A stretch of DNA of 64,000 bases from Escherichia coli. GTDB lineage: Bacteria > Pseudomonadota > Gammaproteobacteria > Enterobacterales > Enterobacteriaceae. Shown here in pieces: positions 43,365 through 44,009 of this stretch (position 1 is the first letter of the stretch; each line of letters starts with the position of its first letter). The stretch lies in assembly GCF_044324875.1 (NCBI RefSeq), contig NZ_CP172185.1; one strand, written 5' to 3'. Both the position numbers and the translations under genes were made by a program. The notes under the pieces were generated by a model, which saw nothing but the letters and a program-made list of their open reading frames with translations, was not told where the DNA came from and searched no databases.

Positions 43365-44009
43365 ATGAGCAGAATTATCACCATCACAGTGTATACGCTG
43401 GATGAACTTTCCTGCCCGGCACGGGAAAAAGCCCGCGACGGGTACCGTCAGCATCATGCTGACAGCAGCTGGTATGAAAACGTGTATGAGGACTTCAGGG
43501 CGGTCTGTGACATTGTCGGGATTGCCCTCCGCCAGCGAGTTATCCGGCTCAGCAGCGGCAGGTTTATGGAAGAGCCGTGCATCTGGTTCAGCGGCTTCAG
43601 CAGCCAGGGGGACGGAGCCTGTTTTGACGGGCGCTGGCACTGGCAGCCGGCAACAGCCAGGAAAATCCGGGAATATGCCCCGCAGGACCGTGAGCTTCAT
43701 CGTATCGCGGATGCCCTGCAGGCGGTGCAGAAGCGTAACTTCCGGCAGCTTCAGGCTGAAATCCGCCACCGGGGACGCTACTGCCATCCGTACAGCATGG
43801 ATATCACCGTCACCCGGGACAGTCCGACTGGTCAGGCTATGACAGCCGATGCGGAAGCCGCTGTCAGCGAAGCCCTGCGCGACCTGGCCTTCTGGCTGTA
43901 CCGTCAACTGGAAAACGAGTACGACCAGATGACCTCAGACGCCGCTGTGGATGAGGCCATTCTCATCAATGCATACATCTTCACCGAAACCGGTCAGCGC
44001 ACCGGCTGA
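43365..44009 (+). CDS. Hypothetical 214-aa protein embedded in the toxin-antitoxin module
   Basis: ATG 43365, 15 bp after the DUF987 stop; MSRIITITVYTLDELSCPAREKARDGYRQHHAD; no family recognised. Confidence 0.5.
   Translation: MSRIITITVYTLDELSCPAREKARDGYRQHHADSSWYENVYEDFRAVCDIVGIALRQRVIRLSSGRFMEEPCIWFSGFSSQGDGACFDGRWHWQPATARKIREYAPQDRELHRIADALQAVQKRNFRQLQAEIRHRGRYCHPYSMDITVTRDSPTGQAMTADAEAAVSEALRDLAFWLYRQLENEYDQMTSDAAVDEAILINAYIFTETGQRTG

Follow-up and report, generated by a model that had tools for sequence, protein, structure and literature searches.

The window analysed here is a stretch of 64,000 nucleotides from Escherichia coli (assembly GCF_044324875.1, contig NZ_CP172185.1). It carries a chromosomal island module composed of GTPase, DUF932, antirestriction, RadC, DUF987, antitoxin and toxin genes, with a further ORF of 214 codons located between the DUF987 gene and the genes of the CbeA/CbtA toxin/antitoxin (TA) pair. 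The genes and signals of this region, all on the + strand, are as follows.

40109..40993, +, YeeP/YkfA-like GTPase gene (PF01926, E=7e-15)
41101..41130, +, terminator-like hairpin of 12 pairs, 5' of the DUF932 gene; likely 5' limit of the transcription unit
41179..41997, +, DUF932 gene (PF06067, E=5.3e-52)
42089..42574, +, antirestriction gene, KlcA/ArdB-type (PF03230, E=2.4e-37)
42590..43066, +, RadC-like JAB gene (PF04002, E=4.9e-45)
43129..43350, +, DUF987 gene, YeeT-like (PF06174, E=1.4e-38)
43365..44009, +, DUF8835 gene, 214 aa (from the ORF list; 100% identical annotated CDS in RefSeq; PHROG 5162 match)
44059..44427, +, CbeA/YeeU-family type IV antitoxin gene (PF06154, E=7.8e-55; annotated in an identical locus)
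44518..44928, +, CbtA-family toxin gene with a frameshifted 3' end (PF06755, E=1.6e-59; 'frameshifted' according to PGAP)
44891..45316, +, DUF5983 (YeeW-like) fragment comprising the N-terminal domain only (PF25638, E=7.8e-30; annotated 'missing C-terminus')
45344..45370, +, terminator-like hairpin of 10 pairs, 3' of the DUF5983 fragment; likely 3' limit of the transcription unit

The ORF runs from an ATG to a TGA codon at 43365..44009 (+), and is separated by 14 nt from the stop codon of the DUF987 gene and by 49 nt from the GTG start codon of cbeA (44059); the coordinates, spacing and order of neighbours reported in an earlier note on this DNA were thus all recovered. The same note's view that the ORF is tightly packed, co-oriented and likely co-transcribed with its neighbours is plausible as well, since neither the DUF987-ORF nor the ORF-cbeA junction displays a promoter-like site or a convincing terminator on the + strand, and since the genes from DUF932 to DUF5983 lie between the two long + strand hairpins (41101-41130 and 45344-45370). 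As judged from these signals, the DUF8835 gene is probably part of the DUF932 to DUF5983 transcript.

The distal part of the island is decayed. The CbtA gene is frameshifted near its 3' end, yielding a product of 136 aa instead of about 125 aa that overruns into the next gene, and identical copies are marked by PGAP as frameshifted pseudogenes; and, over 44891-46248, the DUF5983 gene is truncated and DUF4942 is apparently split into two ORFs (45400-45744 and 45838-46248), the first of which, the only one scanned, gave a weak match (E=2e-4). The related strain GPEC1040 likewise possesses two DUF4942 CDSs. The island ends just 5' of an ABC-transporter permease-like ORF at position 46556, which we take to be glnP; in the best-matching E. 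coli genome ybiO lies within the covered region, and near-identical islands adjoin cadC or frlR in other strains. Just upstream of the GTPase gene, and divergent from it, lies a 333-aa ORF with a triple RPDT repeat (39016-40017, - strand), which relatives annotate as a hypothetical protein. Three Rfam matches above the gathering score were found in the window: an ALIL pseudoknot (21696-21812, 116 bits), an IS3-family frameshift signal, naRNA4 (55872-55942, 78 bits), and ES036 (62615-62657, 41.5 bits).

The 214-codon ORF is a genuine and intact gene, because its product has thousands of homologues, its GC3 is 0.70, its dN/dS values are below 1, an AlphaFold2 model of its product is confident (see below), and no family could be assigned to the other ORFs covering this DNA. 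A sequence search with the 214-aa protein returned 3,482 homologue clusters at 90% identity, and an exhaustive HMMER search returned 3,345 homologue representatives at 50% identity (E<=1e-3), most of which are approximately 205 to 225 aa long and matched from end to end. Pairwise dN/dS ranged from 0.11 to 0.25 among intact copies, and from 0.30 to 0.46 when the allele of the window was compared with other E. coli copies; this allele is altered at positions that are usually conserved (e.g. W26G and E88D). The protein of the window recurs, unchanged, on 403 contigs. Two other ORFs over the same DNA, one of 247 aa in antisense and one of 146 aa in the +2 frame, were rejected as shadow ORFs, neither having a family match.

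On the basis of sequence similarity, the protein is assigned to a family that is catalogued but uncharacterised, DUF8835 or PHROG 5162. The PHROG 5162 profile, itself uncharacterised, matches residues 2-213 (E=1.2e-35), such that the protein resembles the family over its full length, and the core motifs of the family (the GFxSQGDGA hairpin, YxH, the RDLAxWxY helix and the N.Y.F..G tail) were all found in it. The DUF8835 assignment was made via RefSeq copies that are 93-95% identical to the ORF at the DNA level, and that are labelled 'DUF8835 domain-containing protein' in recently annotated genomes (newer PGAP runs). Scans of the protein against local copies of Pfam-A (a copy that lacks the DUF8835 model), NCBIfam and PADLOC, the latter being a library of defence rather than anti-defence systems, returned no family; a Pfam scan of 86 family members yielded scattered weak matches only, with no antitoxin among the 25 most frequent; and searches of PDB sequences with the single protein and with a profile gave nothing below E=0.1. 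No paper on the DUF8835 family emerged from literature searches on DUF8835, its RefSeq name, DUF987/yeeT and the neighbours in ICEs. The failure of the earlier note to assign a motif is therefore understandable and holds for the Pfam-A, NCBIfam and PADLOC copies searched, PHROG 5162 being the sole match. Its description of the ORF as unrecognised, on the other hand, does not stand: a 100% identical protein is already annotated in RefSeq and newer PGAP runs name the family DUF8835, an outcome that the note itself had listed as contradicting its proposal. 

The protein of the window is predicted to have a mass of approximately 24.7 kDa and a pI of 5.7, and the family as a whole is acidic (median pI 4.8). 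AlphaFold2, provided with an alignment of 86 diverse homologues, modelled the 214-aa protein with a mean pLDDT of 96.2 and a pTM of 0.88. The predicted topology consists, in its N-terminal part, of a strand, two helices and a meander of antiparallel strands that includes the invariant 'GFxSQGDGAxFEG' hairpin, followed by two helices, two strands flanking 'YxH', the long helix 'RDLAxWxYxxLE', a short helix, and a C-terminal hairpin. The invariant motifs of the family are an N-terminal 'DELSxxAKxxAR' helix, the 'GFxSQGDGAxFEG' beta-hairpin, 'YxH', and the C-terminal 'RDLAxWxYxxLE...N.Y.F...G', and seven polar residues are nearly invariant (E14, Q81, D83, Y139, H141, R172 and N202). Searches of the PDB with this model retrieved no fold match, whether to antitoxins or to antirestriction proteins, and a structural search of BFVD retrieved uncharacterised phage proteins only (E ~1e-6). 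The DUF8835 protein is thus confidently predicted to adopt a compact alpha/beta fold that is unmatched among solved structures.

The distribution of the gene in E. coli was determined on 5,426 complete genomes, of which 2,827 showed some megablast match to the ORF and 1,942 one that extended over 80% or more of its length. With DUF987-ORF-cbeA as the query, the module was found in 4,864 complete E. coli genomes, and in 1,928 of these (about 40%) a copy with the full ORF was present. The gene is consequently a routine member of such modules, with a DUF label of its own, which is what the survey of homologous modules suggested in the earlier note brought to light. That the ORF is extra relative to the modules of E. 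coli K-12 was borne out, as CP4-44, CP4-6 and CP4-57 all lack it. When the DUF987-cbeA spacers of ORF-less modules were aligned against the window, however, several of them displayed relics of the ORF. In K-12 CP4-44 the yeeT-cbeA spacer of 73 nt keeps the ORF's upstream spacer, its RBS and its first five codons (ATGAGCAGAATTATC), and then jumps to just before cbeA, while in E. coli 536 and one O157:H7 strain what is left is the 3' end of the ORF (~110 bp, stop codon included) together with the complete ORF-cbeA spacer. The spacers of the K-12 CP4-6 and CP4-57 modules (18-37 nt) show no visible relic. Because relics of different ends were found, 5' in K-12 CP4-44 and 3' in 536 and O157, they record different deletions of an ORF that was already present: the DUF8835 gene is ancestral to the CP4-44-type module and has been lost more than once (K-12, O157, 536), rather than inserted as had been proposed; the accompanying suggestion of an alternative cargo gene came close to the truth. 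The textbook K-12 yeeT-cbeA arrangement is accordingly a deletion derivative, the full module containing the DUF8835 gene. The K-12 yeeT-cbeA spacer (locus L003, 7040-7112) also contains an unannotated relic ORF of 16 codons (MSRIIATTGPFLADFL) that begins with the first five codons of the DUF8835 gene.

Across species, the gene was surveyed by a motif-pattern scan of one genome per species, which identified 546 loci, and the flanks of the best 80 of these were examined by tblastn. Among these best 80, 79 were alphaproteobacterial, with proteins 57-62% identical to that of E. coli. A conserved gene of 138 aa was found upstream in 70 of the 80 loci, and in 71 the next gene downstream encodes a methyltransferase/helicase of about 1,440 aa; further neighbours were ParB_N (57/80), a Toprim protein (45/80), ArdC (32/80), DUF2958 (26/80) and RadC (14/80); CbeA/CbtA was present at a single one of the 80 loci, that of Salmonella diarizonae. 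The 138-aa partner (MADYFTHFSCLLDVG…FGGGAHV…; L004 7592-8008, L014 11589-12008, and 70 of the loci L015-L094) and the DUF8835 gene share 8 nt at their junction (stop codon of the former, start of the latter) in 66 of 73 loci, a GGAGG lying immediately upstream; in its commonest setting the DUF8835 gene is thus the downstream member of a translationally coupled pair. Neither this partner nor the other neighbours matched a Pfam or PHROG family, except for DUF6915 and DUF6878 on some of the neighbours, and no counterpart of the partner was detectable in the E. coli islands.

The DUF8835 gene was furthermore found on 110 plasmid records, 41 of which are typed as conjugative. On the Phaeobacter plasmid pP97_c and the Pukyongiella plasmid p2 (MOBP/MPF_T), the gene order is SSB - DUF932 - RadC - RadC - DUF6878 - small genes - partner - DUF8835, followed by an MbcA/RES pair. 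In Pukyongiella p2, the one plasmid examined in this respect, the array is transcribed towards the side of the relaxase and presumed oriT, which lies ~25 kb away with insertions in between; this direction fits a leading-region orientation. DUF8835 is usually encoded among the arrayed accessory genes of conjugative plasmids and ICEs in alphaproteobacteria.

Homologues were also present in 58 phage records. In giant Caulobacter phages (e.g. CcrBL9) the gene is located inside the 22-kb terminal repeat, in a run of small co-directional uncharacterised genes, and on metagenomic phage-like contigs it occurs in runs of small genes together with DUF2958, a nuclease and a resolvase. The homologue of Acinetobacter phage vB_AbaM_CP14 (L102) is labelled 'RNA polymerase binding protein'; this label was set aside, as the record also gives names such as DNA polymerase and clamp loader to tiny ORFs nearby and its annotation looks unreliable. 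A divergent tandem paralogue of 221 aa (locus L012, 1143-1808; PHROG 5162, E=1.5e-5) that lacks the SQGDGA motif is located, on one metagenomic contig, two genes downstream of a canonical DUF8835 copy.

Two readings connect the protein with toxin/anti-toxin systems. According to its database name it would be an antitoxin of the RelB/Phd type, and the evidence for this consists of the propagated name, a phrase that also labels the product of a relB gene in one ETEC proteomics table. The same phrase was given to family 394 in the supplement of PMC11541004, which comes without sequences, so that no tie to the 214-aa protein is possible. RelB/Phd-type antitoxins and DUF8835 share this name only. 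The protein matches no antitoxin in Pfam or NCBIfam, antitoxins are equally absent from the 25 most frequent weak Pfam matches of the 86 members mentioned above, and it shows neither sequence nor fold homology to any known antitoxin in the PDB; with 214 aa and an alpha/beta fold it is unlike the small DNA-binding antitoxins; no RelE/ParE/Doc-type toxin is found beside the gene; and newer PGAP runs have dropped the name in favour of DUF8835. We consider it extremely improbable that the name is correct. It looks like a name given by position or by propagation; it is misleading, and the gene is misnamed.

The other reading, raised in the earlier note, makes the DUF8835 protein a third component of the CbeA/CbtA type IV system that would bind or regulate the toxin or the antitoxin, e.g. 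as a CbtA-binding antitoxin or an adaptor. It can draw on the tight packing of the genes with no intervening signals, on the antitoxin names in the databases, on the fact that the gene directly precedes the MbcA/RES pair on some alphaproteobacterial plasmids, and on a persistent adjacency in the Enterobacteriaceae that comprises two gene orders: DUF987 - DUF8835 - CbeA - CbtA in E. coli, and DUF987 - CbeA - DUF8835 - CbtA in Klebsiella michiganensis (L007-L009) and Salmonella diarizonae (L077), where the antitoxin-toxin pair is split and the gene occupies the classic antitoxin position directly upstream of the toxin. In addition, an in-frame DUF8835::CbeA fusion of 343 aa circulates in several E. 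coli genomes (proteins P0011-P0029). All sixteen fusion sequences examined, however, have one junction (LRAG-LPEDFIV-SD), corresponding to approximately 44006-44059 of the window, and hence a single origin by deletion of the stop codon and most of the spacer; the fusions were for this reason rejected as Rosetta-stone evidence. CbeA (YeeU) and DUF8835, despite being neighbours in the same presumed operon with a natural fusion allele, are unrelated in sequence (PF06154 matches the neighbour only), and DUF8835 is mostly found without CbeA/CbtA: the pair is absent from 79 of the 80 species-level loci surveyed among the 546, so that its co-occurrence with the family is not consistent. The position of the gene relative to the pair varies, and the E. 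coli modules that carry it contain clearly different CbtA subtypes, the gene thus accompanying divergent toxins. It has also suffered repeated deletion or frameshifting in modules whose TA genes are still annotated, and the K-12 modules are without it. The CbeA/CbtA pair of K-12 is the experimentally studied one, and works without a DUF8835 gene.

An AlphaFold2 model of a DUF8835-(GGGGS)6-CbtA fusion, built from the two proteins of the window with six paired enterobacterial alignment rows plus unpaired rows for each half, gave no confident interface; its pTM of 0.59 was obtained with a shallow CbtA alignment and by an indirect method. Fusion left the DUF8835 half as it was (pLDDT about 96), and confidence in CbtA was confined to the N-terminal helices, which is as expected of two unplaced domains and may be read as a weak negative. 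Taken together, the evidence is against an obligate link of DUF8835 to CbeA/CbtA, and a role as third component seems quite improbable. In enterics, the DUF8835 gene has remained no more than one gene away from CbeA/CbtA although synonymous divergence is saturated (dS above 1.5), and a local functional link with the pair is thus conceivable there.

It is unlikely, to a lesser degree, that the gene is in this genome a functionless passenger, intact but decaying, and kept only for want of time to be lost. The decay of the distal island (cbtA frameshifted, DUF5983 truncated, DUF4942 split), the frameshifted DUF8835 copies in the closest island relatives, TUM9803 and GPEC1040, the coverage of 80% or more of the ORF in just 1,942 of the 2,827 genomes with any match, and the dN/dS of the window allele, which lies above that of other E. 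coli copies and goes along with the W26G and E88D changes, all agree with such a passenger; but all 214 codons form an uninterrupted frame, dN/dS has not risen to 1, and the exact protein recurs on the 403 contigs. The distal decay and the somewhat relaxed dN/dS suggest that the gene may no longer serve host or element here. A passenger state is compatible with a role in establishment, as it concerns the present usefulness of the gene to its host, not the activity of the protein.

The reading that we favour, and regard as probable if not by much, is that the DUF8835 gene is an ancestral gene of the island operon, belongs to a catalogued family, is not bound to the TA pair, and encodes a candidate establishment protein. 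DUF8835 travels with accessory genes of the entry stage (SSB, ArdC/KlcA antirestriction, RadC, ParB-like, methylase-helicase and primase genes), and in conjugative elements it shares co-oriented arrays with genes for SSB, antirestriction, methylase and primase functions, while in phages it sits in regions that enter the cell first. Leading regions of plasmids are enriched in anti-defence genes, SSBs, orphan methyltransferases and TA genes, with about 33% of the commonest leading-region families being uncharacterised (PMC11541004), and conjugative elements make use of RadC, ArdC-N, ParB and CbtA domains during the first stage of invasion (PMC5512222). From this company we infer, tentatively and with less than even confidence, that DUF8835 is an accessory protein of mobile elements of the 'establishment' or anti-defence type. 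It would be produced shortly after arrival of the element in a new cell, and would bind or modify a conserved host component, e.g. a defence or DNA-processing factor, its mode of action being other than the neutralisation of CbtA; in the alphaproteobacterial elements it might act together with the 138-aa partner, and in the decayed chromosomal island of the window the gene would probably be a co-transcribed leftover of this establishment function.

The KlcA/ArdB-type antirestriction proteins (PF03230) and the leading-region establishment proteins ArdA, ArdC and PsiB keep company similar to that of DUF8835, in co-oriented arrays with SSB, DUF932, RadC, ArdC, ParB and primase genes, and a KlcA-type gene lies three genes upstream of the DUF8835 gene in the window; the DUF8835 family is, in addition, acidic. 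In contrast to these parallels, there is no similarity in sequence or fold between them and DUF8835, and Pfam and structural searches revealed no homology to ArdA, ArdB/KlcA or ArdC. DUF8835 is also much more conserved across phyla than typical anti-defence proteins, with alpha- and gammaproteobacterial copies sharing ~60% identity. Such conservation is unusually high for an anti-defence protein, and counts against the establishment reading, although it would fit a highly conserved host target. Together with the seven polar residues, it makes an enzyme as plausible as a stoichiometric binder or inhibitor. That DUF8835 represents a new kind of establishment or anti-defence effector with an unseen fold, operating as a two-protein unit with the 138-aa partner in conjugative elements, and, as a sub-variant, recruited to modulate CbeA/CbtA in the enterobacterial islands, strikes us as somewhat doubtful.

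As far as the window itself is concerned, the finding is of minor importance, given that the island is a stereotyped one and the gene one of its catalogued members. The remaining interest is at the level of the family, a widespread conserved gene with an unmatched predicted fold, a misleading name, and a place in the early regions of mobile elements. Being very widespread and strongly conserved, with a confident unmatched predicted fold and a fixed place in the early regions of conjugative elements and phages, DUF8835 is a reasonable candidate for anti-defence or establishment screens.

Among the neighbouring genes of the module, the antirestriction and RadC homologues in K-12 CP4-57 are now named lfgA and lfgB. 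LfgB has been reported as a protease cleaving the antitoxin MqsA (PMC10846083), by which a neighbouring gene family of the module is tied experimentally to a host TA system.
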